Of a stretch of 64,000 nucleotides of DNA, positions 27,738 to 58,455 are shown piece after piece. Under the pieces are notes generated by a model. That model saw only the letters and a list, made by a program, of their open reading frames with translations. It searched no databases and was not told where the DNA came from. The stretch is from IMG/VR virus record IMGVR_UViG_3300005721_000046. One strand, written 5' to 3'. This stretch comes from a virus. The translations under genes were made by a program, and so were the position numbers. Position 1 is the first letter of the stretch. The number at the start of each line of letters is the position of its first letter.

Positions 27738-27824
27738 CCCTCCCCTACCCGCGTCATTTCCGTGCATTTTCTCGCTATAAAATATTATCGACAGCAACGT
27801 TGATTAAGTGAATGCGAGGAAAAA

Positions 27825-35951: not shown

Positions 35952-36009
35952 CCCTAAAGGCGTATATCCTTATATATTTAGGCGAATGTCCGGGAAATCG
36001 CGTATTAAT

Positions 36010-36444: not shown

Positions 36445-36560
36445 TCCGCTTACGTCCGTTCTTATTCGCTCTTATTCATTCTTATTCGTTCTTACTCGCT
36501 TACATTCGTTCTTGGTCACTCTTGTTGGTTCTCAGTTCGCTCTTATTCGTTCTTATATGC
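36445..36560. repeat. about 11 tandem copies of a 10-bp unit YTCTTATTCG (reverse complement CGAATAAGAR)
   Basis: Seen directly. The unit is the reverse complement of the GAATAAG motif found elsewhere. Confidence 0.75.
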
Positions 36561-36840
36561 TCATACACGCTTCTAATGATCTGAAGGCGTTTTGACGCTA
36601 TCTGTCTTTTTTTACGTCTTGCTAGAATATGTTTTATGCTTAGCGTTCCCTATCATGCGTAAAAACGCTCAGTTGACCCTCTAAGCGCGTTTTATATCTT
36701 TGACGTATGAATTGACGTCTTGTTTGACGGTCGCACTCAGTGAGCTTCTATAGCGTTTTTTAATATGATGTTATTTGTTATAGACCTGTCTTAGTTTTTT
36801 ATGTTTCAGCTTGTTAGCGTTTTAAAAAAAATAAATTTTG

Positions 36841-39451: not shown

Positions 39452-39505
39452 GTATTATAGCTTGAGATAGCGTGGAGAAATGTCGGTATAAAAAGGCTTT
39501 AACAC
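39452..39505 (-). promoter_or_regulatory. repeated promoter-like element copy 1 (TATAAT - N11 - CGYGGAGAAATGTCGGTAT ... GGCTTTAAC)
   Basis: Minus-strand TATAAT at 39454-39459. Upstream of the 38837-39418 gene. Confidence 0.55.
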
Positions 39506-39524
39506 TTGCCTTTAGTTATGATAT

Positions 39525-39956
39525 TCATTCCGTAGGATTTAACGTTATTGTCTGTTTAGTTTCTTCGCAAAATCCGATGAAAGTCGGCATGACGTTGTAA
39601 TCTTTTTGCCATTTATCAGCGATTGCCTTAACTGCGTCATCAAAGGCCTTTTCGGCCTCACGTGAACAAATAAAAACATCTTCGTCGCCATAAAAATCGG
39701 ATATGTCCCAATTCACTTCGCCAATAAGATAATCCATATAATCAGCAAGCCTGTGATAGTAGACTTTACCAAAAATTAAATAGATTTTTGTTGGTTTTTC
39801 AGCGCAATTGGCGATTTTCGTCTTTGCATAATTCACCGCATCTTCTTGCGTTTTGAAAGCGCCTTTGTCCGTCTCGAACCGTTTTCCGTCCAGGCTCAAA
39901 AACCAACCGTCTTCGTTCAATACTCTGTTCAATGGTCTTTTACCTTTTGTTATCAT
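39525..39956 (-). CDS. hypothetical protein
   Basis: 143 aa ORF. Confidence 0.4.
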   Translation of the reverse strand: MITKGKRPLNRVLNEDGWFLSLDGKRFETDKGAFKTQEDAVNYAKTKIANCAEKPTKIYLIFGKVYYHRLADYMDYLIGEVNWDISDFYGDEDVFICSREAEKAFDDAVKAIADKWQKDYNVMPTFIGFCEETKQTITLNPTE

Positions 39957-40531
39957 TTTGTTGCTTTCTCTATGGCTTCTTTAATTTCGCGATTTAGACT
40001 GAAAAGCCCTCGAATACTTGAAAAGTTTCGTATTGTTAGCTGGGCAAGATAAATTACGGTAACAAAGCAAAACAATCGAACCAAATGAACCAGATCGATC
40101 GTTATGGCGCTTTGTTCGGTGTCAACGTTGAAAATGATTATTTGGTAGTTTGTTTCGGCTAAAGAGATTGCTATTCCGGCTAGCACACACCTTACAAAAA
40201 AAGCATTTTCTATGTAGTCGCGTTCTTTCTCAAAAAAGGATAAGACTGCTTGTCTCCAATCTGGGTTTAAGTCGGCTTTCAATATCGAAAACCTATGGCT
40301 GAACCACAGATTTAAACAAATGGCTATGCCGCTCGTTACCGTCAAAAATACGAACATATAAATGATCGTACGACCGCTAATGTCCGGCATTCCGAAAATA
40401 AAGTCGAGAACAAAGTAAAGTGCAATACTAACTAATGTAAGAAAACTATATCTATATAATTCCGGATAATCTTCTATGAAAAAGATCATTCTATTTATAA
40501 TATTGTTTATTAAACTTTTTAATGTTGTCAT
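39953..40531 (-). CDS. membrane protein (4-5 TM)
   Basis: Hydrophobic segments. Confidence 0.45.
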   Translation of the reverse strand: MTTLKSLINNIINRMIFFIEDYPELYRYSFLTLVSIALYFVLDFIFGMPDISGRTIIYMFVFLTVTSGIAICLNLWFSHRFSILKADLNPDWRQAVLSFFEKERDYIENAFFVRCVLAGIAISLAETNYQIIIFNVDTEQSAITIDLVHLVRLFCFVTVIYLAQLTIRNFSSIRGLFSLNREIKEAIEKATK

Positions 40532-40577
40532 TAGCTTATCACCTCGACAAAACGATTGCTTGAGTTAATTTCGTGAG

Positions 40578-40630
40578 TTATTATAACTGATAACAACGCG
40601 GAAAAATGTCGGTATGAAAAGGCTTTAACG
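40578..40630 (-). promoter_or_regulatory. repeated promoter-like element copy 2
   Basis: Minus-strand TATAAT at 40580-40585, N11, then CGCGGAAAAATGTCGGTATGAAAAGGCTTTAACG. Confidence 0.55.
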
Positions 40631-41398
40631 ATGTCTCGTGTTTAGTTTTTTCTCAAGTTTTTCAAAGCAAGCCGAAAGCATGCTGGAATCATAACCATTA
40701 AATAATTCACCAGCGGATAATGCAGATTGATGACTGTCAAAACCGGTTTTTGTTTTGCAATAGTCGAAGCTGATAACTTTAAAACCATATGTGCCTTTGT
40801 TATTCTCATCCTCAAAGGTTCTTACCCATTGAAAGATTCCTTGAGATTGCAAACCACATATAAAATCTTTAGGTTCGATTAAAATACCAAGTTCTTTACG
40901 TGAAAAATCTGGTTTTTCCATAAGCTCGGTTGCGTTAGCTAATATGAAATTTTTTATTTCAAAATAAACTTTATTATATGGTCGATTATGCTTTTTAGAA
41001 GCCCATTCGGTCGCGATTATTAACTTTTCAATGCCTGATTTAGATAAATCGTCATAACAATGCATGTAATAATCTTCAGGAATAATCTCAGCGACAAGGC
41101 TTAATGCGTCTTGCATATTATTTGCAAAAACAGAATCCTCGTAGAGGTTTAATTCGTCATATCCAAATGTGAAAATAAACTCAATGTCATTTTCATCAGA
41201 TTTATCAATCCTCAAGCGAACATTGAATGGTAAATGATCTAATTTTGAATCATATGGAACAAAATTAGAGTCTCGTAAATTTTCAATGGAGCCTCGAATG
41301 GTCTTGCTTACGGGCGTCATTTTAATTCTTTTGTTTGTTTTATCATCACAAATGACAAACCACGAATTAACCGGGCCGCGCAAAAGATATGCCTGCAT
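40625..41398 (-). CDS. hypothetical protein
   Basis: 257 aa ORF. Confidence 0.4.
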   Translation of the reverse strand: MQAYLLRGPVNSWFVICDDKTNKRIKMTPVSKTIRGSIENLRDSNFVPYDSKLDHLPFNVRLRIDKSDENDIEFIFTFGYDELNLYEDSVFANNMQDALSLVAEIIPEDYYMHCYDDLSKSGIEKLIIATEWASKKHNRPYNKVYFEIKNFILANATELMEKPDFSRKELGILIEPKDFICGLQSQGIFQWVRTFEDENNKGTYGFKVISFDYCKTKTGFDSHQSALSAGELFNGYDSSMLSACFEKLEKKLNTRHR

Positions 41399-41498
41399 AA
41401 TTGATGTCTTTCATATTAAGATAGATAAATGGCAATTGACAAAAACTGGCCGTCTCGAACGGTGTAAACGATGTTATTCAATTAATTCAGACGTGACA

Positions 41499-41792
41499 CT
41501 AAACATTTTCGTTTATTTGGTTGTCAAGTTTATCAAGCATTTTCTGCCTTTCACGTTGGTCAAGTCCCCACAACTGCGGATTGATTGCATAATTGTGCTT
41601 GTGACAATGTGTTGCGTGTTGAACAGCTTCGTCTAGGGTGTCAAACACGCCTAGCCATTCACCATAAAGAACCGGAAAAGTTATGCCATATTGTCCTTGA
41701 CTTCGGCCGTAATAACCAAATGAAATATGATATCTTTTATCAATTTTCAGCTCTCCTCGCTTGTTTATTCGCTTATCAGAGGCGATACGCAT
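41499..41792 (-). CDS. hypothetical protein
   Basis: 97 aa ORF with a promoter element upstream. Confidence 0.4.
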   Translation of the reverse strand: MRIASDKRINKRGELKIDKRYHISFGYYGRSQGQYGITFPVLYGEWLGVFDTLDEAVQHATHCHKHNYAINPQLWGLDQRERQKMLDKLDNQINENV

Positions 41793-41827
41793 GATGAATT
41801 CTCCGTTCGTTTGTTTTGTTGTCTTTC

Positions 41828-41880
41828 GCTATTATAGCTGCAGAAAACGCGGAGAAATGTCGGTAAAAGAAGGCATTAAA
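41828..41880 (-). promoter_or_regulatory. repeated promoter-like element copy 3
   Basis: Minus-strand TATAAT at 41831-41836, N11, then the conserved block. Confidence 0.55.
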
Positions 41881-41886
41881 CGTTTT

Positions 41887-42600
41887 TTAAGACCAATTTT
41901 GATCTTCTTCTATTTGCTTTTTTCTTATTTCGACAGCGCCCTTTAATCGTTCAATGAAGCGTTGCTTTGCCGTCATGATGTCATTACGCGGAAGAATAAT
42001 ATCTGAACCATCAAACTTGGCGAGTGTTTCTGTATAACGAATGGCGATATTCTTATAAGCGATAATACCGGAACCGGGTCGATAATCCTCTATGATCGAA
42101 AAGATATAAAGGAATGAACGCCGCGCTATTTTACGTTGTGCTATCGAAATAGCTTGGTTTATATCTAAAAATGGGCCGCCGCCAATGCCGTCGACACTTA
42201 GACATGGCTTATTAGACGTATCTCGCTGATGTTCTTCAATGTACCAAAAATAGCTTTCTGGCTTTTGTTGCCATTGTTTTTCTTTCTCTTTCGTTTTCTC
42301 GAACGCTTGTTTTAAAGCATAACAATCGCTTTGATTTAAATGATAACCCACGCAGATTTTTTTAACCACATCCGTAGGTAACGTTGTAGTTCCGGCTTCG
42401 AGCCAAGCCAGCAGTGATGCGTGTACGCCAGTCACTCTTTCCATGTCTTCAATACCATGCTTATGGGCCTTTCGTATCGTACGAATTGCAAGTCCAAAAT
42501 CTGTCGTCTCGCTTGGTATCTCGAATAAGCTGTCGCTGTTCTCGACGTTTAAGTCCCAACTCCAGTACCAATTAGTGCTCTTTTTATCTTTAATTGTCAT
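41887..42600 (-). CDS. XRE-family HTH regulator with novel C-terminal domain (paralog 1)
   Basis: HTH 'AIRTIRKAHKHGIEDMERVTGVHASLLAWLEAG'. Along-length similarity to 42726-43421. Confidence 0.55.
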   Translation of the reverse strand: MTIKDKKSTNWYWSWDLNVENSDSLFEIPSETTDFGLAIRTIRKAHKHGIEDMERVTGVHASLLAWLEAGTTTLPTDVVKKICVGYHLNQSDCYALKQAFEKTKEKEKQWQQKPESYFWYIEEHQRDTSNKPCLSVDGIGGGPFLDINQAISIAQRKIARRSFLYIFSIIEDYRPGSGIIAYKNIAIRYTETLAKFDGSDIILPRNDIMTAKQRFIERLKGAVEIRKKQIEEDQNWS

Positions 42601-42667
42601 GCTTTGTTTCCATCTCTATCGTCTCGACGAAACGGTTGTTTGTGCTAATTCTGTGTGATTGAGTGTT

Positions 42668-42722
42668 TATTATAGCTGCAGAAAACGTGGAGAAGTGTCG
42701 GTATGAAAAGGCTTTAAACGCG
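42668..42722 (-). promoter_or_regulatory. repeated promoter-like element copy 4
   Basis: Minus-strand TATAAT at 42669-42674. Confidence 0.55.
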
Positions 42723-42725
42723 TTC

Positions 42726-43421
42726 TCAGGAATAAAACTGGTCTTGTTCTTGTTGTTTTTGCCTTATCTCAACAGCGTTTTTTAAACGTTCGATGAAGCG
42801 TTCCTTTGCCGTCATCATCTCTTTACGCTGAATAATACCTGAGGCGCTAGACTTGGCGAATGTTTCTACAAAACGAATGACGATATTCTTATAAGCAATA
42901 ATACCGGAGCCAGGTCGATAATCCTCTACAACCGAAAAAACATAAACGGTTGACGGCTGTACCACTTTAAATTGTGCTACCGAAATAGCTTGGTCAATAT
43001 CTAAAAATGGACCGCCGCCAATACCATTGTTGTTTTGCGAGGAGGGCTGATGTTCTTCAATGTACCAAAAATAACTTTCTGGCTTTTGTTCCCATTGTTC
43101 TTCTTTGATTTTTGTTTTTCGGAAAGCTTGCCTCAAGGCATAATCATCTTCCTGGCTTAATTGATAACCCACGCAGATTTTCTCATCGACTCCATAAGGC
43201 AATCTTACAATTCCGCTTTCAAGGCAACTCAGTAGGCGATAGTCGACATCGGTCAATCTTCCCATGTCGACGACGGTATGATTATGAGCCTTTCGTATCG
43301 TTCGAATTGCATGACCGAAATTCGTTATTTCACTTAGAATTTCAAATAGGCTGTCATTAGTCTTAAAATCCGAGTCCCAGTTCCAGTGCCAATTAGTGCT
43401 CTTTTTGTCCTTAATTGTCAT
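42726..43421 (-). CDS. XRE-family HTH regulator with novel C-terminal domain (paralog 2)
   Basis: Start set at 'MTIKDKKSTNW', which is conserved with paralog 1. The longest ORF extends to 43448. Confidence 0.55.
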   Translation of the reverse strand: MTIKDKKSTNWHWNWDSDFKTNDSLFEILSEITNFGHAIRTIRKAHNHTVVDMGRLTDVDYRLLSCLESGIVRLPYGVDEKICVGYQLSQEDDYALRQAFRKTKIKEEQWEQKPESYFWYIEEHQPSSQNNNGIGGGPFLDIDQAISVAQFKVVQPSTVYVFSVVEDYRPGSGIIAYKNIVIRFVETFAKSSASGIIQRKEMMTAKERFIERLKNAVEIRQKQQEQDQFYS

Positions 43422-43499
43422 GTTATCGTCGACTCCTAACATCTTCACAAAGTGTCTTTTCTCCCGTTATGGGTTGATAGACGTGTGATTATTGTTGCA

Positions 43500-43697
43500 T
43501 TAAGAGCACTCCTCGAGGGCAATTCTTACAGCCGTATTAACTTGAGCGATAATTCGCTCATCGGTGTCTCCTCGCTTCTTTAAAATACGAACAATGGTAG
43601 TCATAAAAGCGGCCGGTAAGACACGAGCCGACTCGTCGTCAGAAAGTCTTCGATCCGCTTCAATCTTTATTGAAATTTTTGGTAAGTTGTCGGTCAT
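43500..43697 (-). CDS. hypothetical small protein
   Basis: 65 aa ORF with a promoter element upstream. Confidence 0.35.
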   Translation of the reverse strand: MTDNLPKISIKIEADRRLSDDESARVLPAAFMTTIVRILKKRGDTDERIIAQVNTAVRIALEECS

Positions 43698-43776
43698 TTT
43701 GTTTTCTCTTTATTCGGTTCATCTGTCGCGTCAATGAGACGTTCGTTTGTGTTGATTTTGCGTTATTGTATGTTTG

Positions 43777-43835
43777 ATTATAGCTGCAAACAGTGCGGAA
43801 AAATGCTGGGTAAAGAAGGTATTAAACACCTGATA
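43777..43835 (-). promoter_or_regulatory. repeated promoter-like element copy 5
   Basis: Minus-strand TATAAT at 43777-43782. Confidence 0.55.
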
Positions 43836-43873
43836 GAGACAATTGATTCAATGATGAATGGTTTTCGCTGTAA

Positions 43874-44251
43874 TCAATGGATATTGTCGGTTGTGTCGCG
43901 TTCTTTTCCTGATGAATAGCTGGCCGTCAGTGATTGCAAATAATCGCGTTCTGATTGCGATAAATTACCATCAGCTAACGCGGTTGCGATTGTCGCTTTG
44001 ATTATTTCTTTTTCAGCGGATAATGACGGCATTAGCGAATAAAAGAAAAAAAACGCACAAGAAGCAAAAAGAAAACCTCCAGTTATCATTTTCAGTTCGT
44101 CCGTTATTTTTTCTCCAGCCATGCTGACCGCCAGAATTACAAACATCGCTATCCAAAAAAAGATAAATGAAGTTGATGCGGTTACGAAAAAGAATGTTTG
44201 CAAATTGCTCGCGCCGTCACAGCGATAAATTATGCCAATAACGTCATTCAT
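43874..44251 (-). CDS. membrane protein (3 TM)
   Basis: Hydrophobic segments. 4-nt overlap with the upstream gene. Confidence 0.4.
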   Translation of the reverse strand: MNDVIGIIYRCDGASNLQTFFFVTASTSFIFFWIAMFVILAVSMAGEKITDELKMITGGFLFASCAFFFFYSLMPSLSAEKEIIKATIATALADGNLSQSERDYLQSLTASYSSGKERDTTDNIH

Positions 44252-44781
44252 TCTGCGATTTTCTCTTTTATTTCGTTTAAATTTGTTTCGGCCGCGAGCA
44301 ATTCAGCCAATTTTTCTTGAGCCAGAACAATAGCGTCTATGCCGCTGTTAAGCTTTCTTTGCTGGTAAATGTCGAAACAGGTTTGGAAAAATTCGGTTAG
44401 CAGGAAAAAACTAATAGCGAAGCGAACCGCTTGTACGACATCAACTGCCCCAACGCGATTACCGACATGACTAAACAGTTCAATTTGAAAATGAAAATCT
44501 GGTAGTAAAACCATAATATTGGTAAGAATGGATAGCAGAATAAATAAGACAAATTTTTTTCGCCAAACACGTTCGAGGTTGGTTATAAGATATTCGCGAA
44601 GATGCGTTTCTCCTATCGTCGCAGCTTTGGTAACTGTTCTATTAACCAGTTCAAGAGAATATATTCTTGGAAGCGCGAAAATAACATAGGAAATGCTGAG
44701 TTCCGTTAATGTAACGATAGGACTTTGCATAAACACGTAATAGAGAAACGCGAGTATGGCTAAGAAGCAGGCTTTTTTCAT
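44248..44781 (-). CDS. membrane protein (4 TM)
   Basis: Hydrophobic segments. Confidence 0.4.
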   Translation of the reverse strand: MKKACFLAILAFLYYVFMQSPIVTLTELSISYVIFALPRIYSLELVNRTVTKAATIGETHLREYLITNLERVWRKKFVLFILLSILTNIMVLLPDFHFQIELFSHVGNRVGAVDVVQAVRFAISFFLLTEFFQTCFDIYQQRKLNSGIDAIVLAQEKLAELLAAETNLNEIKEKIAE

Positions 44782-44830
44782 TTTTCGGCCTCTAAATGTT
44801 CGTAGTGGGATTCACCGTCTTGTTGTCGGT

Positions 44831-45337
44831 CTAAACTTCTTCGGAAGAGGCGATAGTCGCGTCGTAATAGATAATTTTGATACCGAGTGAGCCTGCGCTA
44901 CCAAGCTGATCAATATGATAAGATGGATCTTCAATATCGATCAGCCCGTTTAGATGTTGTTCGATAATGTCGTTGAACGCATCTCCGGGACTTTTACTCG
45001 GCCAAAGACCTCTTCCGGCTTTAATCGCTGCAGTAAATTTAGGAAGATCGATTTCACACGTTAGATATGTTTCGGCTTTAACGTTAATTGTTTTTATCGA
45101 TCCATCTTCTGTTTCGTTTTGTATTCGCTTTATCAAAAGTTGATTGCGGCGCAGTGAGACGTCAAACTTTGTTTCTCTATTTTCTTCGTCAAAAACCGAA
45201 AAAGTTTCATGAGATTGTTCGGTGTCTAGCTTCTGTAGGCGTTGCGCTACGTCTTTATTTAAGAAAATGTAACTTGCTATTGCGTCTTTGGGATTGCGAG
45301 CGGCTATTTTTTGTTTATTTATGATGAAAAAGTTCAT
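44831..45337 (-). CDS. hypothetical protein
   Basis: 168 aa ORF. Confidence 0.4.
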   Translation of the reverse strand: MNFFIINKQKIAARNPKDAIASYIFLNKDVAQRLQKLDTEQSHETFSVFDEENRETKFDVSLRRNQLLIKRIQNETEDGSIKTINVKAETYLTCEIDLPKFTAAIKAGRGLWPSKSPGDAFNDIIEQHLNGLIDIEDPSYHIDQLGSAGSLGIKIIYYDATIASSEEV

Positions 45338-45349
45338 TTTTATATGCCT

Positions 45350-46036
45350 TCAAACCGTCGCTTCGATTAGTTTTCTTTCGTCAATGACTTTTTTAATTTT
45401 GGCGCGTAAAATAACAGCCGCTGCTGCTGCGTTATATGTCCACTTTCGCATCCATTCATTTTTTTGATGCGAGTAATGAAATCCTCGTTCTTTCAAAAGA
45501 TCAGTAATGTCCGGCGAAGGCTTTTCTGAAAAAATGAATTTTATTCGTTTTTCTTCGGAATTCTGTTCAAGATCAAAGCCGTATTCCGGGTAAGAAAGTC
45601 TCTTTGTTTTAAGCGTTGCGATATGCTTTATTTCCTCAATTCGTTTTTTTAACCGACGAATTTCTGAATATTTTGCGGCTGTCTTATTTTTTTCGGCTTT
45701 TATCTCGGCGAGCTTGGCTTCAAGCTTTTCAACCGCATCCGGATCATCACTTGAAATGCCGCCTTTACCGACTGATTTCGCTTTTTCTTCATAAAATTCC
45801 GCTTTTTCAATTTCTTTGGTCGCACGACTAAAAGCACTGTCAAGCTGGTTTTGAGTCCGTAAATGTTTTTGTTCAGAATAATGACCGCGTAAAACGGGTT
45901 GACCACCTGAGCCCAAAAAGACCTGATGCCGTTCGTGCGCGGCATTCAATATTTCGTCCGATTTTTGTCGAGCTGTTGCGGCTTTTTTGAGCAGTTGTTG
46001 ACGTTTTTGTTCCTGTTTTTCGTAGATATTCGTCAT
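45350..46036 (-). CDS. hypothetical coiled-coil protein
   Basis: 228 aa. Five CCTTATTT repeats lie immediately upstream. Confidence 0.45.
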   Translation of the reverse strand: MTNIYEKQEQKRQQLLKKAATARQKSDEILNAAHERHQVFLGSGGQPVLRGHYSEQKHLRTQNQLDSAFSRATKEIEKAEFYEEKAKSVGKGGISSDDPDAVEKLEAKLAEIKAEKNKTAAKYSEIRRLKKRIEEIKHIATLKTKRLSYPEYGFDLEQNSEEKRIKFIFSEKPSPDITDLLKERGFHYSHQKNEWMRKWTYNAAAAAVILRAKIKKVIDERKLIEATV

Positions 46037-46045
46037 TTTTCAAAA

Positions 46046-46085
46046 CCTTATTTCCTTATTTCCTTATTTCTTTATTTCCCTATTT
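46046..46085 (+). repeat. 5 tandem copies of CCTTATTT (= AAATAAGG), abutting the start of gene 45350-46036
   Basis: Seen directly. Confidence 0.7.
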
Positions 46086-46308
46086 ATGTATATAGGGAGA
46101 TAAAGAAATGCGCGAAGCGGTCTGATTTAACCGTAATGTCAATACTTAGTCACAAAGAAGCGGCATCAGACTTTTCTTGCTTAGTAGGACGTTCGCGCGC
46201 ACCCCGAAAGGAATCTTTGTGACTTGGCATCGTAAGCTGTTTAGTGTCACAGCATCACGTTCTGATATTATGTATAGCGAAAATAAATGTGGAAGTATTG
46301 AGGATGTG

Positions 46309-46707
46309 TCAGGCGTCTGATTGAAGATCGTATTCGTACAACTCGTCTGGATAATTCGATTCGATGAAGTCTCTTGCGCCGTTTTGATATGCGCCGATAA
46401 TCAAATCCTTTTTTTCTGCCTCAAGTCTAGCGTTCAAATTAATCAAACCGTTTATTGTTGCTTCTTTCTGCTGGCACAGCTCGTACATTTTCACCAGATA
46501 CTGCACCTTTTGGTCTTCGATCTTCTCGTGTTGATTCATAAGTTTTTTTACAAATTTAGCGGTTTGATATTTCTTGAAATTGAAAAAACCGAACACTTTT
46601 AAGTCTCCTGAGCTTAAGCTATAACAACTATTTGTTATAGCGTGACAAAAGCTGGACTTTGTTAGGCACGATTGAGTATCGAGCGTCCGGAATAACGATA
46701 CAAACAA
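46309..46707 (-). CDS. hypothetical protein
   Basis: 132 aa ORF. Confidence 0.35.
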   Translation of the reverse strand: MFVSLFRTLDTQSCLTKSSFCHAITNSCYSLSSGDLKVFGFFNFKKYQTAKFVKKLMNQHEKIEDQKVQYLVKMYELCQQKEATINGLINLNARLEAEKKDLIIGAYQNGARDFIESNYPDELYEYDLQSDA

Positions 46708-46787
46708 AAATCGCTTGCCGAAGAAAAATATTCATGGTAGAAAACAAATGCGACAGAATTCTCTTTCTGTTGTTTGTTTTACAAAAA

Positions 46788-47078
46788 TTAACCTTCCTTA
46801 ACTGGAAGGTTTTTTTTTGACTTCGTATTATATCGACCTTCAAGTTCAAATGCCGCTATTTCTGCAATCTGAATCCATGTGCAAGACGGCTTTTTCTCGT
46901 CAACAACGACCAGGAAATGTCGAGGATCGTCAAATACTGCCACTTTTCCTCGAATAGGCGCGGAATTGCCTTTCAGTGTAACGGCTACCGAGCAACCGAC
47001 AAGCTTCTTTTTGGTTGCAAATATATTAATGAACATCGGTGTCATTGTTTGTTTCCCTTTGTATACGCCATTTTTCAA
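46788..47078 (-). CDS. small protein with tentative Sm/Hfq-like fold
   Basis: 'VAVTLKGNSAPIRGKVAVFDDPRHFLVVVDE...IQIAEIAAFEL' resembles the Sm1/Sm2 pattern of Hfq. Weak call. Confidence 0.3.
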   Translation of the reverse strand: MKNGVYKGKQTMTPMFINIFATKKKLVGCSVAVTLKGNSAPIRGKVAVFDDPRHFLVVVDEKKPSCTWIQIAEIAAFELEGRYNTKSKKNLPVKEG

Positions 47079-47280
47079 ATGAAAGGTTCTCGTCTGCGTC
47101 GACTGATGATATGGATTTTTCGATTGCCGCGATCAGAGCGGATCTATCCAGTGTTGAATATTGATCGAAATTTTTGATTGGATTGGGTTGATCAGGAAAG
47201 CTTAAAGCGAACCGGCGACGCATTTCCGCAAGAAAACAAACTGCGGCGAATTCTAAGCGTAGGCGTGAAAGATTCTGCAT
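47026..47280 (-). CDS. hypothetical small protein
   Basis: 84 aa ORF. Confidence 0.3.
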   Translation of the reverse strand: MQNLSRLRLEFAAVCFLAEMRRRFALSFPDQPNPIKNFDQYSTLDRSALIAAIEKSISSVDADENLSFEKWRIQRETNNDTDVH

Positions 47281-47936
47281 AATTAATTAGTCACAATTTT
47301 ATTAGATGGCTAAAAAGCGCGTTGTTACAAGTGGTTAAGTTTTTATAGTTGAATTCAAAGTTGAAAATTGCGGGGTATTTCTTGTTCATTAAAAAAAATT
47401 TTATGGACTCTAACAAAATATTCGATCAGAAAGCGAGAACAAAACGGGAACAGCGGAAAGGGGCGGTTTATGATGCAGTACTCGGATACAAGGATTACGC
47501 GCGCGGCAACTATGCTACGCCGCGATTTAAAATTGACTGTTGGGCGAATATTTAAAGAAAATGGCATTCTTTTTAATGAAGAGGTGTTTTTGCAAAATAC
47601 GTCAATTGATTGGGAACAACTCGTTCAAGAAGCTTTTTGCTATGGAACGGATATAATTCCGCCTCCTGTACCTGTTAAAGAGACATTAGAAATCAATGTT
47701 CAAGTTGAGGTTTTAAACGTATAAAAGTTGTTTCGTGGTTAAAATGAGATTTATAGGCCAACGAATTGAGCAAAAAAGAAAGAAAGTTATTCGTTGACCT
47801 ATAGTTAATTATGAAATATGAAATAGAAAAATGAGTGTTTTGCGTCTGAATTATGTCTTTACGTCATATATTCTCCTTTTGTTTTTTCTTATAATATATT
47901 TATAGCAAAAATGAACTTGGAATGCTGTAGGTAAAT

Positions 47937-48983
47937 CTATATCGCCCAGACCCGATAACGTGATCGGCCAGTAATTTCTCTCAATTGCAACGTCTTTAAA
48001 ATCTTCAATACACCGGCCGGAGAAATATTCAGCGCGGCTGCCGCATTTGTGGTTGTAACGACCGGCGTTGCAATAGCATAATCAATAAAAGCCTTGGTTT
48101 TGGATCCCGCACGTATGTTTTCGGTGCGTTCTTGCAAGCGTTCATAACGGACTTTGATTTTATGAGCGTTACGAATGGCTTGCTCGCTTGAAAGCGCATA
48201 AGCGTCGATATAGGCTTTCAAACGCTTCAAACGATTATGATTTTTGCGGGTATTTAACGGTGTTTGTCTTAAACCCGTTGTTATAGAAGGCAGATAATCA
48301 AGCGATAAATCCACCCGAAGGGCAGTGTTTGCGTATTCAAAGCCAAGCCATGGTTTGTTCGGTATTGGATCGAGGTTAATCCAGGCGTCCAGAAGGATGG
48401 CCGAACGCAAGATTGGCGGTTCGTGCTGCGTTGATTTTATAACCTCTTGCCATTTTTCCCATATTTCATCCTGATTTTTTGGCTTCAGCAATTGCTTAAG
48501 TCGGTTAGGCTTGATTTCAAGTGTCTCCGGATTTTCAAGGATTTTGTTTGTACGCTCTAAGATGGCGTCTATATCTTCCAGCTCTCTTTCAAAATCATCA
48601 ATAGCGGTTTTATCACGTGAAGTTTCGTGAGTTGGCTGTTGTGTCAATTGGAATGAATCTGCTTCAAAGAGCCACTCGCGCTTCTTGGTCTCGATCAAAC
48701 GTCTGGCAGCCAGAATATCCATGGCATCGGCAATATCCTGATTAGAAATTGCAACGTCGGTGTTATATGCGTGGAGCACCAAGTCGTTCAATTCGATCAA
48801 GCCGCCTTGAAGATAGATTGAGGCAACGGCTGAAAAGAAATGTTCGCGACTGTTTAGTCCGTTTTTGAACGTGGATGCCTCGATGAGACCGTTGTAACGC
48901 ATGATTAGCTCGGTCGCTTTTATCAGCGGCTCAAGGAGTTCAGAACGGTCAACCGTAGACGATCTATAATCAATTGATTTCAT
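47937..48983 (-). CDS. hypothetical protein with C-terminal HTH, divergent from integrase
   Basis: 348 aa. C-terminal 'AAALNISPAGVLKILKTLQ' HTH-like. This is a common architecture next to tyrosine recombinases. Confidence 0.45.
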   Translation of the reverse strand: MKSIDYRSSTVDRSELLEPLIKATELIMRYNGLIEASTFKNGLNSREHFFSAVASIYLQGGLIELNDLVLHAYNTDVAISNQDIADAMDILAARRLIETKKREWLFEADSFQLTQQPTHETSRDKTAIDDFERELEDIDAILERTNKILENPETLEIKPNRLKQLLKPKNQDEIWEKWQEVIKSTQHEPPILRSAILLDAWINLDPIPNKPWLGFEYANTALRVDLSLDYLPSITTGLRQTPLNTRKNHNRLKRLKAYIDAYALSSEQAIRNAHKIKVRYERLQERTENIRAGSKTKAFIDYAIATPVVTTTNAAAALNISPAGVLKILKTLQLREITGRSRYRVWAI

Positions 48984-49001
48984 TTAAAAAAATATTTCAC
49001 A

Positions 49002-49028
49002 TTAAACTGAAAGCGGCGTTCAGTTTAA
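49002..49028. promoter_or_regulatory. 10-bp perfect inverted repeat TTAAACTGAA-N7-TTCAGTTTAA in the divergent int promoter region
   Basis: Seen directly. Confidence 0.45.
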
Positions 49029-49141
49029 TCACTACCGATAATAACGCAAGCAGTTTCTAACTAATGATAACTATCCCTTATCGTTAGTGTTGAATAAAAC
49101 CGCAAATCATCGTATGGAGAGATAACTTCAACGAGGATGTT

Positions 49142-50259
49142 ATGAGCGACTTAAATCCGCTTTATTCGGTATTGCCGACAAGACAGGTCGAAAACCTCGG
49201 CCATGAACTCAATAGCGAAGATGTTGCGACATTAAGCTACCTTGTTCAGCAAGGCATGGGCGCAAACACACTGCGCGCTTTGGCCGCCGATCTTGCTTAT
49301 ATCGAATGCTGGTGCAAGGCTGCCACCGGCCATGATCTCGATTGGCCGGCACCTGAGACGCTCATACTCAAATTTATCGCTCATCACCTTTATGATGTCG
49401 CAAGGCACGAAGTTGATAAAAGCCATGGCATGCCGGAAGAGGTTGCCTCGGCCATGATTAAAGCAGGCGTTCTTAAGCATGTCGGACCGCATGCACCTTC
49501 GACTGTCAAGCGCAGATTGTCGTCATGGGCGACATTGACACGATGGAAGGGTCTTGAAGGCGCATTTCAGTCGCCAAAGATAAAGAATGCTATTCGGCTG
49601 GCCGTTCGTGCAAGTGAGCGGCCGCGCCAACGTAAAAGCAAAAAGGCGATAACCATTGACGTATTAATCAAGCTTATTGCGACCTGCGGTCAAAGTCTGG
49701 TTGATATGCGTGACAAAGCAATTCTATTGGTAGCCTTCGCATCAGGTGGTCGACGGCGTTCCGAAATCGCAAGTCTCAGGATGAGCCAATTAACGAGAGA
49801 AGCCGACGTTTTAATCGACGCGCGGGATGCGGGGAAGGGGACTATGCCATGCGCTCGAATTAGGCTTGGGCGCACGAAAACCACGACAAATGATGAGGGC
49901 GATTATGCACTGATTATGGGCAGACCCGTCGTTGCTTTGTATCAATGGATTGAGGCTGCGCACATTGATAAAGGCGCAATTTTCAGGTCGATTGATAGAT
50001 GGGGGAATATCAACAATGTGTCGCTTACAGGCCAGTCGATTAATAATATGATTAAATCGCGCGTCAAAAAAGCCGGATTGGATCCTAACGACTTTTCAGC
50101 TCATGCTTTACGAGCAGGTTATCTCACTGAGGCCGCGCGAAAGGGATATCGCTTCCCGAAGCCATGCAGCAATCAGGCCATAAATCAATACAGCAGGCGG
50201 CACGTTATTATAATGACAGTGAGCGCAGATCAGGCTTAGCGGCGCGACTTATCGATTGA
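49142..50259 (+). pseudogene. int: tyrosine recombinase / phage integrase with +/-1 frameshift near the 3' end
   Basis: The main frame ends 'KGYRFPKPCSNQAINQYSRRHVIIMTVSADQA*' at 50239. The adjacent frame from about 50160 encodes the canonical catalytic tail 'AMQQSGHKSIQQAARYYNDSERRSGLAARLID*' (stop 50257-50259). A single-base indel near 'CCCGAAGCC' (50153-50161) would restore it. Confidence 0.75.
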
Positions 50260-50578
50260 TAGGTCTTGCTTGTTTTACGTGATAGACGGCGACGATGTGA
50301 ATGATTTGGTTGTCGTCAATCAGATAGCGTATTTCGTACCTTTTGCTGACGAGCATTCGCCTTACAGGTGTTTTAGTTTGAAGTCCTTTAACGACCGGAT
50401 GGCTTTCAGGAAAAAGTTTTAAATCTTCAACTGCATCTAAAAGCGCATCAACCAGTTGCTGCACTCTTATCTGACCTGAACCGGACGCTGATTTATCGGT
50501 GCGGATTATAAAATTGGTAATCTCATAAAGTTGGTGAAGAGCATACTCTTCCCATTGAATGGCTTTGATAACATGCAT
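50249..50578 (-). CDS. ParE/RelE-family toxin
   Basis: 109 aa. C-terminal 'RYEIRYLIDDNQIIHIVAVYHVKQ' is a ParE/RelE pattern. Preceded by a small partner gene. Confidence 0.6.
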   Translation of the reverse strand: MHVIKAIQWEEYALHQLYEITNFIIRTDKSASGSGQIRVQQLVDALLDAVEDLKLFPESHPVVKGLQTKTPVRRMLVSKRYEIRYLIDDNQIIHIVAVYHVKQARPINR

Positions 50579-50579
50579 A

Positions 50580-50786
50580 TTAAGAAATGGGATCTGGCCA
50601 AGAAAGAGGTTTATCTGTGAATTTGCTCATGATGAAGCGCCGAACATCTTCATGCCTATAGCTTTTGGCACCAGGTTTTTCCATTTCTTCCAGTGCCCTG
50701 AGCGTGTCAATGTCCATCTCAGCTTCGGTCCAACCTCGTTGAGTCATTTCTTTTAAGTCAGGTGTTTTAACGCTAGCGTGAGACAT
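50580..50786 (-). CDS. putative antitoxin partner
   Basis: 68 aa ORF directly upstream, separated from the toxin gene by one nucleotide. Confidence 0.45.
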   Translation of the reverse strand: MSHASVKTPDLKEMTQRGWTEAEMDIDTLRALEEMEKPGAKSYRHEDVRRFIMSKFTDKPLSWPDPIS

Positions 50787-50863
50787 CGATTACCTTCTCT
50801 AAGTGAATATATCTTAATATATATGAACACATTACAACGTGTCAAATGGTTGTGGTCGGGTTA

Positions 50864-51238
50864 TCATTTAGAGCTAAGACAAATCTCGCGAAGATCCGGG
50901 TCGTCAATCATGTAACAGTTACCTTCGCACGATGCGCGCTCGTCCGGGTCATCAATCATATAGCAAGAGCCTTTACCGGTTTTGCCGAGACACAATGCAC
51001 GTTCTTGCGGATCTTCGATATCATAACAAGAACCGGCTTTTGTTTGGCCAAGACATTGTTGTCGCATCTGTCGGTCATCGATTGCGTAGCAAGAATCCTT
51101 GCCCGATAAACCAAGACATAATGCGCGTTCTTGCGGATCGTTAATGTTGTAACAGTTACCGCCTGCTTGCGCTGTCGCGTTAAAAGCAAGGTTAATTAGA
51201 ACAAATGATATAATGACAGCGATATTTTTGATAAACAT
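50864..51238 (-). CDS. secreted cysteine-rich protein with five tandem ~21-aa repeats (CY-I-DP-ER-LCLG)
   Basis: Signal peptide 'MFIKNIAVIISFVLINLAFNATAQA'. Repeats are seen directly in the translation. Confidence 0.55.
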   Translation of the reverse strand: MFIKNIAVIISFVLINLAFNATAQAGGNCYNINDPQERALCLGLSGKDSCYAIDDRQMRQQCLGQTKAGSCYDIEDPQERALCLGKTGKGSCYMIDDPDERASCEGNCYMIDDPDLREICLSSK

Positions 51239-51548
51239 TTTACTCTACCATCATTAAAAAAGGCATCAAATGACGCCTTTTTTAATGTCTTTTGTTTCTT
51301 CGTGACTTTCATAACATGTTTATAGGAATAATCGACGGCATGTTTATAGGAAAAACCGACACGATTTTCAGTTTTTTGTTTGCCTTTTCTAAACAATTTG
51401 CATTGTCACAAATAAAAACAGTTTGTCGGTTATTATCATCTAAACTATCACAAAAACAAACTCTTGTGGCCGCTTGATAACAAAAACCGCAAATGTCTTT
51501 TCTATGGTTATTAAGCATTTGATAACCTTTTTGTTGCTTAAGATCGGA

Positions 51549-52406
51549 TTATTTTAGACTGACAAATGGCACAGAATTACCGGACATCATTGTACTTGGC
51601 AAAGCACCATTCCAACGTTCAGCCTTTGTAAGATCAATCAAGTCAGGATTGTTATGAAGTGCCTCACTTTTTGCCTTAATTGCATCTGCCGAAGCTTGGC
51701 CCTCGATGCGAATGGACTCGGCTTTGCTTTTTGCTGACGCCAATTGACTATCAGCTAGAGCTTGAGCGCGGGTTACGGTGATTTCGGCTTCAACTTTGGT
51801 ACGTTCGAGTTCTTGCTTTTTTGTTTGAACAGCCATTTCCGCCTGTGCGCGTTGTTCTGCGGCTTCTTCTACGGTCTTCGAGAAGGTAATGTTCTCAATC
51901 TGAACAGCCTCAATCTTAATCAAACCGTCACCGATATTAGAAATAGCTTTTGTAAGCTCGGTGTTTAATCGAGTACGTTCGCGTATGGCTGTATCGGCCG
52001 TAAAAGTACCAAAAACCGAAGCTATTTGTTCCTTTGCCGGTCTTAAAATCATTCGTGAGGCTAAACTATCAAGCGTACCGAAGTTGCGATAGATTTGTTC
52101 AACCTCTCCAGGTAGTGCAGAATAGTTAATCGAGAAAGTAACAGTCGCGGTTTGTCGGTCAGATGTATAAACCGGTACATCCTTAAAATCGCTGGTTTGA
52201 GTGCGAATTGAGATAATTTTGGCGTCGTCAATAAATGGCTTTTTCCAATAAATTCCCGGCGTTGACGTGCTGATGATTTTTGAATTCGACAAAATAACTG
52301 CCCGCTCTCCTTCGTCGACAACGTAAAACGAACCGCCAATGATGGATATTGCGATAACAAAAACAATAAAGCAGATTATTGCCGACACAATTTTAATAAT
52401 GGTCAT
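51549..52406 (-). CDS. SPFH/band-7 (HflK/C, prohibitin-like) domain membrane protein
   Basis: N-terminal TM followed by 'YVVDEGERAVILSNSKI' SPFH start motif. C-terminal coiled coil. Confidence 0.75.
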   Translation of the reverse strand: MTIIKIVSAIICFIVFVIAISIIGGSFYVVDEGERAVILSNSKIISTSTPGIYWKKPFIDDAKIISIRTQTSDFKDVPVYTSDRQTATVTFSINYSALPGEVEQIYRNFGTLDSLASRMILRPAKEQIASVFGTFTADTAIRERTRLNTELTKAISNIGDGLIKIEAVQIENITFSKTVEEAAEQRAQAEMAVQTKKQELERTKVEAEITVTRAQALADSQLASAKSKAESIRIEGQASADAIKAKSEALHNNPDLIDLTKAERWNGALPSTMMSGNSVPFVSLK

Positions 52407-52591
52407 TTATTTTGTTTTTTCCTTTTTTGGTTTTTTTGATCTCGGTATAATGCCCATTTGAAAGCTTGATAGGCGCCAATACCTATCAGACATCCCACGA
52501 CGAACCCGCCTATAAGTTTGTAAATCATATTGATTACCTTACAGTTTTGTGAAAATGATTGAGATTGATAAAATTCGTTGAGGTATGACAA
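52403..52591 (-). CDS. small membrane protein upstream of the SPFH gene
   Basis: 62 aa, one TM and a basic tail. 4-nt overlap. Confidence 0.35.
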   Translation of the reverse strand: MSYLNEFYQSQSFSQNCKVINMIYKLIGGFVVGCLIGIGAYQAFKWALYRDQKNQKRKKQNK

Positions 52592-52640
52592 TCTCGCTAT
52601 ATGTTATAGCGAGATTACTTTTTGACGCTTGCGGGTAATA

Positions 52641-53435
52641 TTAAGCAGCTTCTGCAACAGTTGCTGCAGGAGCTAACAAGTCACGCAACCGATTTGTGAT
52701 TGTATTGTTGGGCAGCAATGTCAGTGTTTGCCCAGAACGATTAGCGATTTTGACGCACGAAAGAAGCGTCATCATCTGCCCTGTTTGCGAACGCGCTGTA
52801 CCTTCGCGTAGACCAGCGTCTTGATACATCTTCACAACTTCGCCGTTAGTCGCTTCGCCTTTTTCTAACAGATAAGCAAACGCCATTTTAGTGTACCGAG
52901 AAGGTTCGCGACCGGCGGCGAGCGAGATAAACAGATTATCGAATTTTTCACCAATTTTTGTCTGCAAAGGCCTAAGCTTAATCACTTCATCCTTGATAGC
53001 ATCCAAGCGTGACTGGTCCAATTTAGAAGGATCTTCTTCGAGAACAAAAAATTCAGCCGGAACTGACGCCAAAGAGTGAACAGAACGTCCGCCTTTTCTC
53101 GTTGAAGACAATTTCTGTTTCTTTTTACTCTTATCGGTCACAGCAGCCGTCACTTCAGAGACCGCTATAGGCGTCACAACCGGCTGTTCTTCGTAAATTT
53201 TTTCTTTCTCGATAGTTGCTTCAATGAGGTTGAGTTCTTCGGATGTAGGCGTTTCAACATTGCTGTCGACAGTGATATTAAGATCAGTAATTTCAGACTG
53301 ATCATTTTGATCACTATCATCGACAACCTCGTCAACCGACTCTTCTTCGCCAATAATATCGTCAAATTCACTCAATGCCTGTTCAAGCGAAACTTCTGTT
53401 TCGTTTGAGGCTTCTGTAATTTCATGTGCACTCAT
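52641..53435 (-). CDS. hypothetical protein with strongly acidic N-terminal half
   Basis: D/E-rich first roughly 90 aa. Confidence 0.4.
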   Translation of the reverse strand: MSAHEITEASNETEVSLEQALSEFDDIIGEEESVDEVVDDSDQNDQSEITDLNITVDSNVETPTSEELNLIEATIEKEKIYEEQPVVTPIAVSEVTAAVTDKSKKKQKLSSTRKGGRSVHSLASVPAEFFVLEEDPSKLDQSRLDAIKDEVIKLRPLQTKIGEKFDNLFISLAAGREPSRYTKMAFAYLLEKGEATNGEVVKMYQDAGLREGTARSQTGQMMTLLSCVKIANRSGQTLTLLPNNTITNRLRDLLAPAATVAEAA

Positions 53436-53511
53436 TTTAGTAGTCCTTCTACTCGATTAGTTTAGTATAGATTGATCATAGAAGTTTTGCGTGTGGAGTG
53501 CGGCAGGTAAA

Positions 53512-54066
53512 TCAAGCTGCTTTTTGTTTACCTGTGGTGTCAGGAAGCTTGTAAAAACCCCATGTTGAGGCTTTGAAGAAGCACTTCATCATTACCTCAA
53601 CATCATAATAGGCGGCGTGTGCTTTGCTTTGATCATAATCAACGCCGCAAGCAAACGCTAATTCGCCCAAGCGCGGCTTTTTCCCGTCAGAAGTCGCCCA
53701 AACACCCTCAAGCATCGTGTCAACAGAAGGCTTCTTAGGCATTATAAGGCCAACTCGCTTTAATTCCTTGGCAATAAAGGGAAGATCAAATTCGTTTCCG
53801 TTATGAGCTATTAACAAATCCGCGCGTGACAAGATTTTTTGCACCATTGGCGCGACCGCTTTCCATTTGGGTTGACCAAATAGATCATTAATCGATATCC
53901 CGTGAACGCGCTGTGAGTCAGCAGATATACCTCTTTCCGGATCAATTCGCTGCTCATATTGCCATATGCGTTTTTCGTCTTTCCATAGACCGACATAAAT
54001 TTCAATAATGCGATGATCGGGCGTTAAAAGACCTGTGGTTTCAATATCAAGTCCGGCGATAATCAT
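53512..54066 (-). CDS. DnaQ-like 3'-5' exonuclease (DEDDh)
   Basis: Exo I 'LDIETTG', Exo II 'AHNGNEFDLPF', Exo III 'HAAYYDVEV'. Confidence 0.8.
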   Translation of the reverse strand: MIIAGLDIETTGLLTPDHRIIEIYVGLWKDEKRIWQYEQRIDPERGISADSQRVHGISINDLFGQPKWKAVAPMVQKILSRADLLIAHNGNEFDLPFIAKELKRVGLIMPKKPSVDTMLEGVWATSDGKKPRLGELAFACGVDYDQSKAHAAYYDVEVMMKCFFKASTWGFYKLPDTTGKQKAA

Positions 54067-54362
54067 ATCGTTTTCTCAATCTTCCTAATGCCAAAAATGT
54101 TCTCAACCGTCGTAATAGCCTCGTCTTTTGTTGAAGTGCGCGCGATAGGATAAAGCGTTAGAGGTGGCATTTGGCGCAGTGAAATGCTCCAACCGTTTTC
54201 ATCGTTACCAACGACATGAGCAACATCTCGATCATTCATGGTTAAAACGCATAATGTTACGCCAAGAGACGGATTTTTGACGCGTTCATTAAAGTCGGCG
54301 TTAGTAAGAAACTGCTCTGTCCATTGAGCCATTGTCGTGTCCTTTATAATAAATGACGCCAT
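54063..54362 (-). CDS. hypothetical protein
   Basis: 99 aa ORF. Confidence 0.35.
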   Translation of the reverse strand: MASFIIKDTTMAQWTEQFLTNADFNERVKNPSLGVTLCVLTMNDRDVAHVVGNDENGWSISLRQMPPLTLYPIARTSTKDEAITTVENIFGIRKIEKTI

Positions 54363-54877
54363 GTCTTGTTGTTGACGATGGCGAAGATTGTTGAGCGGCT
54401 TACATTGTATTTTGATGCCAGAAACGCGGCGCTTTCTTTGCTGTGGCGAATTTCACACACGTCGTTCGCGGTAAGTTTCGCGTTTGCGTTTGCGCTGCCG
54501 CGACCTGTTTTCAGACCGGTTCTATGCGCATGTCGTTCGTTTTCTGAGCCGCTTGCCCATTCAAGATTAGAGACGGCATTGTTTTGTTTGTTGCCATCGA
54601 TGTGATTAACTTGCGGCAAATTATGCGGATTCGGCAGAAAACGTAACGCGACAACTCTGTTTACCAAGACTGATTTTGTAATGCCGCGCCAGGTTAGATT
54701 GAAATAAACACGGCCGGTGGACTTATGTGTTCGCGGCTTAACAACTGACCACGTGTTTGACATAAGTTCACCGGCGTACGACGCACGCGAGCAACGGCGA
54801 ATGGTTCCGTCACTCGTCACGATCAAATAACGCTTAACCAGGGCGTCTTTAATCCATGCGTCTTTGTTGAAGGTCAT
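54344..54877 (-). CDS. HNH endonuclease
   Basis: 'NHIDGNKQNNAVSNLEWASGSENERHAHR' HNH_3 motif. Confidence 0.7.
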   Translation of the reverse strand: MTFNKDAWIKDALVKRYLIVTSDGTIRRCSRASYAGELMSNTWSVVKPRTHKSTGRVYFNLTWRGITKSVLVNRVVALRFLPNPHNLPQVNHIDGNKQNNAVSNLEWASGSENERHAHRTGLKTGRGSANANAKLTANDVCEIRHSKESAAFLASKYNVSRSTIFAIVNNKTWRHLL

Positions 54878-55113
54878 TCGGGTTTTCCGGCCGAAGAGGA
54901 AATACCGTTACGAATATCGGCGTGAATGTCTGCGAGCAGACTAGATAATCCGTCGTCAACGATGCCGGATGTCGTGTCGTACAAAACATTAACAACGAGA
55001 AAATACTCTCTTTTGCTAATTTTTTTCGCGTTATAAGCCGCAGTCCATTTGTCTAATTGATCTGCAGCTTTACGCGAAAGTTCCTCCATATGACTCGGCC
55101 ATTCGTCGATCAT
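54874..55113 (-). CDS. hypothetical small protein
   Basis: Start trimmed to Met 55113 (GGAG SD) because the promoter-like element copy 6 lies inside the longer ORF. Confidence 0.35.
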   Translation of the reverse strand: MIDEWPSHMEELSRKAADQLDKWTAAYNAKKISKREYFLVVNVLYDTTSGIVDDGLSSLLADIHADIRNGISSSAGKPE

Positions 55114-55140
55114 TTTGTTCTCCGTGTTGTTGTGTGCTTT

Positions 55141-55195
55141 AGCTATTATAACTTGTAACAACTCGGAAAAATGACGGGATGTAATGGCATTAAGC
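55141..55195 (-). promoter_or_regulatory. repeated promoter-like element copy 6
   Basis: Minus-strand TATAAT at 55145-55150, N11, then CTCGGAAAAATGACGGGAT. Confidence 0.5.
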
Positions 55196-55208
55196 GCTTT
55201 GCGCTAGC

Positions 55209-58328: not shown

Positions 58329-58455
58329 GTTTATTTCTTTCGATAAAATGTCTCATAAGACAAAAAAATAGCGCGTCGTTTTTTTTCACGACGCACTGTT
58401 TTTTATAACGAGAATTTTTTTGGATAACTGATGGGATTAATCAGATTTGTGTCGG

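Follow-up and report, generated by a model that had tools for sequence, protein, structure and literature searches.

The window analyzed here is the whole 64,000-nucleotide (nt) stretch of the IMG/VR virus record IMGVR_UViG_3300005721_000046, and it carries six copies of a 49-nt element that are very probably promoters. Judged by their motifs, the six elements would be a lineage-specific variant of a promoter class with a host-type -10 box and no -35 box that is common to Rhizobiales phage-plasmid-like phages. Phages often carry repeated promoters, and the basic finding is thus of an ordinary kind; the variant is undescribed. We favor, at a shade under even confidence, a reading in which the -10 box would be opened by a host sigma factor and the upstream block would need an extra factor.

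Six upstream regions aligned gap-free over 49 nt:

39454..39502, minus strand: copy 1, TTAAAGCCTTTTTATACCGACATTTCTCCACGCTATCTCAAGCTATAAT
40580..40628, minus strand: copy 2, whose first TTAA holds the stop codon of the upstream gene 40625-41398
41831..41879, minus strand: copy 3, variable between strains
42669..42717, minus strand: copy 4, a match to both the pattern and the weight matrix described below
43777..43825, minus strand: copy 5, more divergent
55145..55193, minus strand: copy 6, more divergent

From this alignment we derived a degenerate pattern with fixed spacing, TTAAWRCCWTY-N5-CC-NN-CAYTTYTCCR-N3-T-N-T-N4-AGYTATAAT, which matched the window exactly six times, always on the minus strand, and found no match in dinucleotide shuffles. 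In a weight-matrix scan of the window, the six copies scored 62-74 bits and all other positions 8 bits or less, with a best score of 11 in shuffled sequence. A first-pass annotation had reported an element of roughly 50 bp in six copies, and the search bore this out. It had further described an invariant TATAAT-N11-CGCGGAGAAATGTCGGTAT architecture. The TATAAT and the N11 spacing held in every copy, but the 19-mer CGCGGAGAAATGTCGGTAT was not invariant: copies 1-6 carried 1, 1, 1, 2, 7 and 4 mismatches to it, and a search allowing up to three mismatches returned only four copies. That description had also mixed strands, giving TATAAT in the minus-strand sense and CGCGGAGAAATGTCGGTAT in the plus-strand sense.

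Constant in all six copies were TATAAT, the N11 spacing (no indels) and 28 scattered positions. The constant parts were AG at -15/-14, TCC at -29 to -27, a CA, the 5' TTAA and three CC pairs, which lie ∼10 nt apart (element positions 7-8, 17-18 and 28-29). Mean pairwise identity was 77% within the block; it was 30% over the 40 nt before it, and 36% and then 24% across the 60 nt after it. The edges of the element are therefore sharp, and the conserved span corresponds roughly to the upstream promoter DNA contacted by RNA polymerase. We observed no dyad symmetry or repeated half-site in the conserved block. Scanning IMG/VR, GTDB genomes and JGI metagenomes with exact and relaxed patterns yielded zero or chance matches only; 16 matches in metagenomes came from sequences with no protein similarity to the window.

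The copies are oriented and intergenic, as the first-pass annotation had placed them, upstream of minus-strand genes starting at 39418, 40531, 41792, 42600, 43697 and 55113. For copies 1-6, the end of TATAAT lies 35, 48, 38, 68, 79 and 31 nt before these start codons, with Shine-Dalgarno sequences present, and the upstream gene ends 0-48 nt before the element with no terminator in the gap. At copy 6, the longest open reading frame (ORF; 54874-55161) starts at a TTG inside the element, and the shorter start that had been proposed for this gene proved right: a GGAG lies 8 nt before the ATG at 55113, genes called independently on a different contig include the 79-amino-acid (aa) product, and this ATG is the real start.

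The window derives from a phage, with tape-measure, large terminase, helicase, ribonucleotide reductase and integrase genes and a portal-sized ORF adjoining the terminase. It is an uncultured siphophage of 42% GC, kin of the Rhizobium phages V1VFA-S and RHEph10: its terminase is 73% identical to those of V1VFA-S, B1VFA and RHph_X66 and 66% identical to that of RHEph10, and the window minus strand is collinear with the V1VFA-S plus strand. GC content runs at 36-46% in the window versus 59-60% in the relatives, which are described as phage-plasmid-like with parA, parB and repC present (PMC12509600). The same phage was present in several ENA, Logan and JGI metagenome assemblies at 95-99.99% identity to the window. 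A megablast search with 38-46 kb of the window found no match among 50,697 deposited phage records, and queries with the 257-aa and 193-aa proteins of the window returned only distant or unrelated phages.

A reduced core, TCC-N12-G[CT]TATAA[AT], occurred at nine sites in the window against 0.2 expected from shuffles. These comprised the six copies and three weaker members at 58424(-), 47921(-) and 27759(+), which also carry CC..CA..T.TCC upstream:

58402..58424, minus strand: TCC-N12-GTTATAAA, between a glutaredoxin-like gene and the Thy1-like gene 58328-57438
47899..47921, minus strand: TACCTACAGCATTCC-N12-GCTATAAA, directly downstream of the DUF1612/HTH_13 gene and followed only by a 2-codon ORF
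27759..27781, plus strand: CCCGCGTCATTTCC-N12-GCTATAAA, 44 nt upstream of the plus-strand gene 27825-28499

Because the core recurs beyond them at a fixed TCC spacing, the six copies are a strong subset of a larger class. The co-regulated regulon of the first-pass annotation therefore survives as a set of promoter-like copies before six units, but not as a closed set of six. At the first weaker member, a GC-rich hairpin and T-run come directly after the core box (58360-58424, minus strand; GTGCGTCGTG-A8-CGACGCGC-TATTTTTTT); this resembles a terminator for the ribonucleotide reductase operon, set downstream of a promoter box.

The same core was found in relatives. V1VFA-S has no copy of the 49-nt element but 17 core sites against 0.35 expected, all of them preceding genes of the replication, nucleotide-metabolism and small-gene arms and none in the structural module. 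On its gene-coding strand, 16 of the 18 GCTATAA boxes have a TCC 11-13 nt upstream, and on both strands together this held for 17 of 24, versus a background of 4.9%. Two metagenomic relatives recovered via a sigma gene (see below), L061 (59% GC) and L067 (49% GC), have four core sites each, against 0.07 and 0.15 expected, respectively. V1VFA-S and the window alike have an equivalent site before the gene that lies upstream of the HNH gene. The specificity core common to the phage lineage is thus a TCC at about -29 to -27, exactly 12 nt, and G(C/T)TATAA(A/T); from these comparisons, TCC and the GYTATAA box at fixed spacing are the conserved determinants of the class. To this core the six strong copies add an asymmetric conservation from -55 to -30, TTAAAGCC..ACCGACAYTTY, of which the -55 to -33 part is specific to the window phage. 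The add-on in V1VFA-S and L067 is an 18-bp palindrome, TAAGTAAG-NN-CTTACTTA, found at ∼26 places at or just past the predicted start site and lying on or beside both promoter classes in these phages (for the second class, see below); RHEph10 carries a palindrome of its own.

Since the strain contigs match the window at 95-99.99% identity, their orthologs of five of the six copies show no change and give no information. Copy 3 is the sole copy to vary: its ortholog in other strains has eight changes, none within positions 17-30 and 36-49, which include the TCC and the -10 box. This fits a stronger constraint on those two parts.

TATAAT is perfect in all six copies and is preceded by AG(C/T). 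The first-pass annotation called this -10 canonical, which is correct for the hexamer, but the box is the local variant of a family-wide one, GCTATAA(N) in V1VFA-S and G(C/T)TATAA(A/T) in the window, always 12 nt downstream of TCC. The housekeeping promoter of alphaproteobacteria is CTTGAC-N17-CTATAT (PMC2873474, PMC7717549), and the Caulobacter RpoD promoter is TTGaCgS-N10-14-GCtANAWC (PMC8144410). GCTATAAW agrees with GCtANAWC at 7/8 positions and with CTATAT at 5-6/6. The block over the -35 region is not sigma-70-like, as had been claimed. A consensus scan for sigma-70 -35/-10 pairs called none of the six copies and found no CTTGAC or TTGACG at a permitted spacing; the hexamer 17 nt from the -10 is CAYTTY, and the only GACA (in ACCGACA) lies 20-21 nt from it, with CCGACA at a distance of 21 nt. 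In Caulobacter, single -35 changes shift promoter activity 6-18-fold (PMC8144410), and a promoter without a -35 would hence be expected to need help.

Structural genes are headed differently. The portal gene here (20303) and in V1VFA-S has a sigma-70-like CTTGCA-N18-TACAAT or TATACT upstream; the existence of a second promoter class, CTTGCA-N18-TAnnnT, follows from this. At 20260-20310 (minus strand), before the putative portal gene, the arrangement is CTTGCA-N18-TATACT with a palindrome CGTTATA-T-TATAACG in the spacer, and in V1VFA-S AAGCTTGCAA-palindrome-TACAAT stands before three structural operons.

That the element depends on a phage-encoded activator or an alternative sigma, as first proposed, is plausible. 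In the reading we favor, each element would start a short minus-strand operon in the accessory-gene arm of the phage. Host core RNA polymerase with the host housekeeping sigma would open the -10 box, contacts to the TCC-centered block would stand in for sigma region 4 contacts at -35, and a phage-specified factor at about -30 to -55 would most likely make these upstream contacts. Such a geometry would resemble that of a class II activator or of the sigma appropriation by MotA/AsiA of phage T4, where the -35 gives way to a box 11-13 bp upstream of a host-type -10. The six units might then be turned on together once the first phage proteins exist; their 'early or middle' timing is drawn from gene content only.

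Several observations weigh against this reading. The start sites of the six elements are predicted ones. Among the precomputed Pfam matches for the called genes of window 31.9-64 kb there was no activator candidate and no MotA or AsiA homologue, the only regulator-type matches being the XRE-like HTH_31 paralogs and one DUF1612/HTH_13 protein. The element also lacks the dyad symmetry typical of sites for helix-turn-helix dimers. In V1VFA-S, 17 of 18 plus-strand boxes end the hexamer in A, G or C, which is odd for an E. coli-type sigma-70; this variable base agrees with the Caulobacter consensus. RHEph10 shows the class weakly (four sites, three of them GCGATAA), duplication or gene conversion, and not protein contact, could account for part of the similarity over the 49 nt, and only a contig name points to a honey-bee-gut Rhizobiales host.

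An alternative that we regard as unlikely, though worth weighing, is that a divergent ECF-like sigma-70-family protein of the lineage replaces the host sigma and reads TCC, as a short-spaced -35-like site, together with GYTATAAW, making these middle promoters. The sigma gene (PF04542) is conserved in 64 related elements, whose long contigs are mostly ∼104-122 kb, with a fixed synteny of CobT-CobS-sigma-x-PolIII alpha; it is also present in V1VFA-S and RHEph10. The V1VFA-S protein gave only a sub-threshold ECF superfamily match to NCBIfam and no match in a sequence search of solved structures. In its favor, the TCC-N12-GCTATAA class co-occurs with the sigma in V1VFA-S, L061 and L067, the 14-nt gap from TCC to TATAA is unsuited to region 4 of a housekeeping sigma, the last hexamer base varies in V1VFA-S, and the second promoter class is found at the V1VFA-S structural genes and the window portal gene. 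We dropped the co-varying -10 of RHEph10 (GCGATAA) as a further argument, since it rests on three sites only. However, the sigma gene of the window phage was not found: it would be expected ∼14 kb beyond the window end, and the retrieved homologues were all on contigs of 49-60% GC, none at 42%. Moreover, a site of this same promoter class stands at the head of the sigma-containing unit in V1VFA-S, L061, L067 and a further relative, L065, where no sigma-70-consensus promoter was seen. Transcription from the class must therefore be possible before any of that sigma has been made, and under strict sigma dependence there would be no way for it to begin. Phage sigmas also usually use a distinct -10, whereas this one is the host-type alphaproteobacterial consensus.

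The six elements might instead be strong but ordinary host sigma-70 promoters for which no phage factor is required, a perfect -10 with G at -14 being enough and the upstream block being either an UP-like contact for alpha-CTD or a relic of recent duplication and gene conversion; we consider this improbable. The perfect -10 would suit it, as would a conserved span matching the upstream promoter DNA that RNA polymerase contacts, and the early promoters of T4 and T5 are likewise conserved far past their hexamers. Because the two genes behind copies 4 and 5 are paralogous, tandem duplication did happen here, and recombination at the repeats would fit the strain-variable segment 40669-42555, which lies between copies 4 and 2. 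Nevertheless, element similarity does not track the paralogy of the downstream XRE-like genes and the flanks are at background identity, so simple tandem duplication fails to explain the conservation; the fixed 12-nt placement of TCC also holds across phages of 42-59% GC and is thus no leftover of duplication either. The block is not notably A/T-rich, and alphaproteobacterial housekeeping promoters lean heavily on a -35 (PMC8144410) that none of the six elements has. There is a slighter chance still that the upstream block is mainly an operator, through which a repressor of the lysogenic or plasmid state would silence the six promoters in carrier cells, much as P1 C1 acts at many dispersed asymmetric operators. 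The relatives resemble phage-plasmids and carry parA, parB and repC (PMC12509600), copies 4 and 5 precede two XRE-like genes, and palindromes lie at promoters of V1VFA-S, L067 and RHEph10, so that lineage-specific regulator sites attached to these promoters are the rule. But the block is asymmetric with no repeated half-site, there are only six copies in 64 kb and none at late genes, and the replacement of the -35 would be left unexplained. An operator function is compatible with activation by a phage factor and could coexist with it.

Other readings were discarded. A MerR-type long-spacer promoter has no dyad in the spacer here, the GG-N10-GC of a sigma-54 promoter is missing, and the second TTAA at N7 of a CtrA box is absent too. 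An intrinsic terminator or RNA element was rejected on a scan with no terminator-like site at the six elements, fold z-scores of -0.7 to +0.2 that support no structure, and the lack of an Rfam match there. Plus-strand transcription from the elements would meet no plus-strand genes after them.

Compared with known systems, the elements most resemble T4 middle promoters in having a host-type -10, no -35 and a phage-specific box near -30 (here TCC 12 nt from GYTATAAW), in many copies before prereplicative or accessory genes. They differ in sequence, the MotA box being (a/t)(a/t)(a/t)TGCTTtA centered at -30 and the segment here CAYTTYTCC (-35 to -27), in a conservation that reaches -55, and in an alphaproteobacterium-like host. 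With the promoters of phage sigmas (SPO1 gp28, phiEco32 gp36 and T4 gp55) they share a lineage-specific class, many repeats and a divergent sigma-70-family gene in relatives, but the -10 here is the host consensus and the sigma operon of relatives carries the same class. The T4 late (gp55) promoter has TATAAATA at -10 and no upstream element, as opposed to TATAAT(A/C), TCC and a block to -55. Alphaproteobacterial housekeeping promoters match in the -10 box but not in the CTTGAC or TTGACG, which is absent here at an allowed spacing. Like T4-type PeSL cassettes ('mobile regulatory cassettes') and extended T4/T5 early promoters, the copies are near-identical ∼50-nt promoters between small ORFs of a plastic region, and, as with PeSL cassettes, two copies bracket a strain-variable block; unlike them, they have no stem-loop and a non-canonical -35, and recombination at the copies is circumstantial. 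Finally, the lambda CII promoters PRE, PI and PaQ also combine a poor -35 with short direct repeats on one helix face across the -35 region (here the CC pairs), but there is no TTGC-N6-TTGC and no known CII homologue here, and in relatives the class drives replication genes too.

It is possible, though we doubt it more than we believe it, that the V1VFA-S/RHEph10 lineage and its low-GC relative share an undescribed redirection of host RNA polymerase. A host-type -10 with TCC at a fixed 12 nt replacing the -35 would be read by a phage factor or by the divergent sigma of the lineage, as an independently evolved analogue of T4 sigma appropriation tuned by lineage-specific add-on modules, namely the 5' block here and palindromes in relatives. 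What is gained is a precise promoter definition, TCC-N12-GYTATAAW, for the poorly studied large Rhizobiales phage-plasmids, whose genome announcement mentions no transcription signals (PMC12509600), and a framed question of what takes over -35 recognition. If a dedicated factor is involved, the 49-nt elements would be ready-made strong inducible promoters and baits for that factor. They also fix gene starts and operon boundaries for annotation of the phage.

The six elements precede consecutive short units of mostly unannotated genes:

39418 down to ∼37026, minus strand: unit of copy 1, a 2OG-Fe(II) oxygenase-like gene and four small genes
40531 down to 39525, minus strand: unit of copy 2, 192-aa and 143-aa genes
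41792-41499, minus strand: unit of copy 3, a 97-aa gene at these coordinates, then a 257-aa gene
42600-41887, minus strand: unit of copy 4, an XRE-like (HTH_31) gene
43697-43500 and 43448-42726, minus strand: unit of copy 5, a 65-aa gene and an XRE-like paralog, respectively
55113 down to ∼50249, minus strand: unit of copy 6, a 79-aa gene, HNH endonuclease, RNase T-like exonuclease, Band_7 protein and ParE-like toxin pair

The XRE-like genes 41887-42600 and 42726-43448 are tandem paralogs with an HTH_31 domain and 73-81% DNA identity; we found no link between them and the element. The leaders after copies 2, 4 and 5 (40532-40579, 42601-42668 and 43698-43776) share a block of ∼35 nt, roughly AAnTnAnCnCAAnCnAnCGTnTnnTnGAnnnGAnA, that is not in copies 1, 3 and 6 and may be a second regulatory site, for example for autoregulation of the XRE-like genes. 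A sigma-70-like CTTGAC-N16-TAAACT (55199-55241, minus strand), which may be a chance occurrence, lies within the end of gene 55209-55823, ∼6 nt upstream of copy 6.

Between copies 4 and 2, the segment 40669-42555 is where strain differences cluster, among them a 1-kb gene insertion: strains L055 (12230-13249), L057 and L058 have an extra 318-aa gene at 41428-41477. This segment is a mosaic block bracketed by the two copies and holds nearly all remaining strain differences, a cluster that is compatible with exchange at the repeats without proving it. The contig name of L057 (JGI 3300000333), HBC_ctgs, hints at a honey-bee-associated sample; together with the 42% GC and the Rhizobiales-type DUF1612/HTH_13 gene, a Bartonella-like host would fit. 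Two contigs of assembly ERZ12633344 break at or near the integrase gene (window 49832 and 50433-50760), close to the integrase 49142-50239 and the ParE-like pair 50249-50786. Collinearity places this region roughly at the ends of the V1VFA-S record; a physical end of the genome, a terminal repeat or a junction that varies between strains could lie here.

The window holds other repeats. Iteron arrays with an 8-bp period (consensus about AATAAGGA, up to ∼14 tandem units) lie around the region collinear with the V1VFA-S ParA/helicase region, one of them upstream of a DUF3560 gene:

27655-27724: 8-bp iteron array
28499-28525: 8-bp iteron array
29577-29603: 8-bp iteron array
30158-30285: 8-bp iteron array
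32483-32657: 8-bp iteron array
34841-34874: 8-bp iteron array
35930-35989: 8-bp iteron array
46046-46094: 8-bp iteron array, inverted

V1VFA-S has analogous TAGCTNNN arrays of 8-bp period at equivalent places, and these may be partition (centromere) or replication iterons. Two further intergenic tandem arrays have a 10-bp unit of about TTCGTTCTTA in ∼12 units (36445-36572) and a 10-11-bp unit of about GGTTTTTCGGCA (31493-31642). At 22284-22358 and 33800-33866, arms CCCGTCCTAC(G/A)CGCTGTAA and TTACAGCGCG(A/T)AG surround a pure A/T stretch of 30-40 nt. One of the two is found a short way upstream of the putative small-terminase/HTH gene 21563-22234, and at the corresponding position (35.17 kb) V1VFA-S carries an inverted repeat with CCCGTCC arms; the structure may serve late regulation or packaging. 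Lastly, a perfect 18-bp palindrome, GTTATGTTATAACATAAC, is present at 26022-26039 between the divergent genes 25998(-) and 26091(+).

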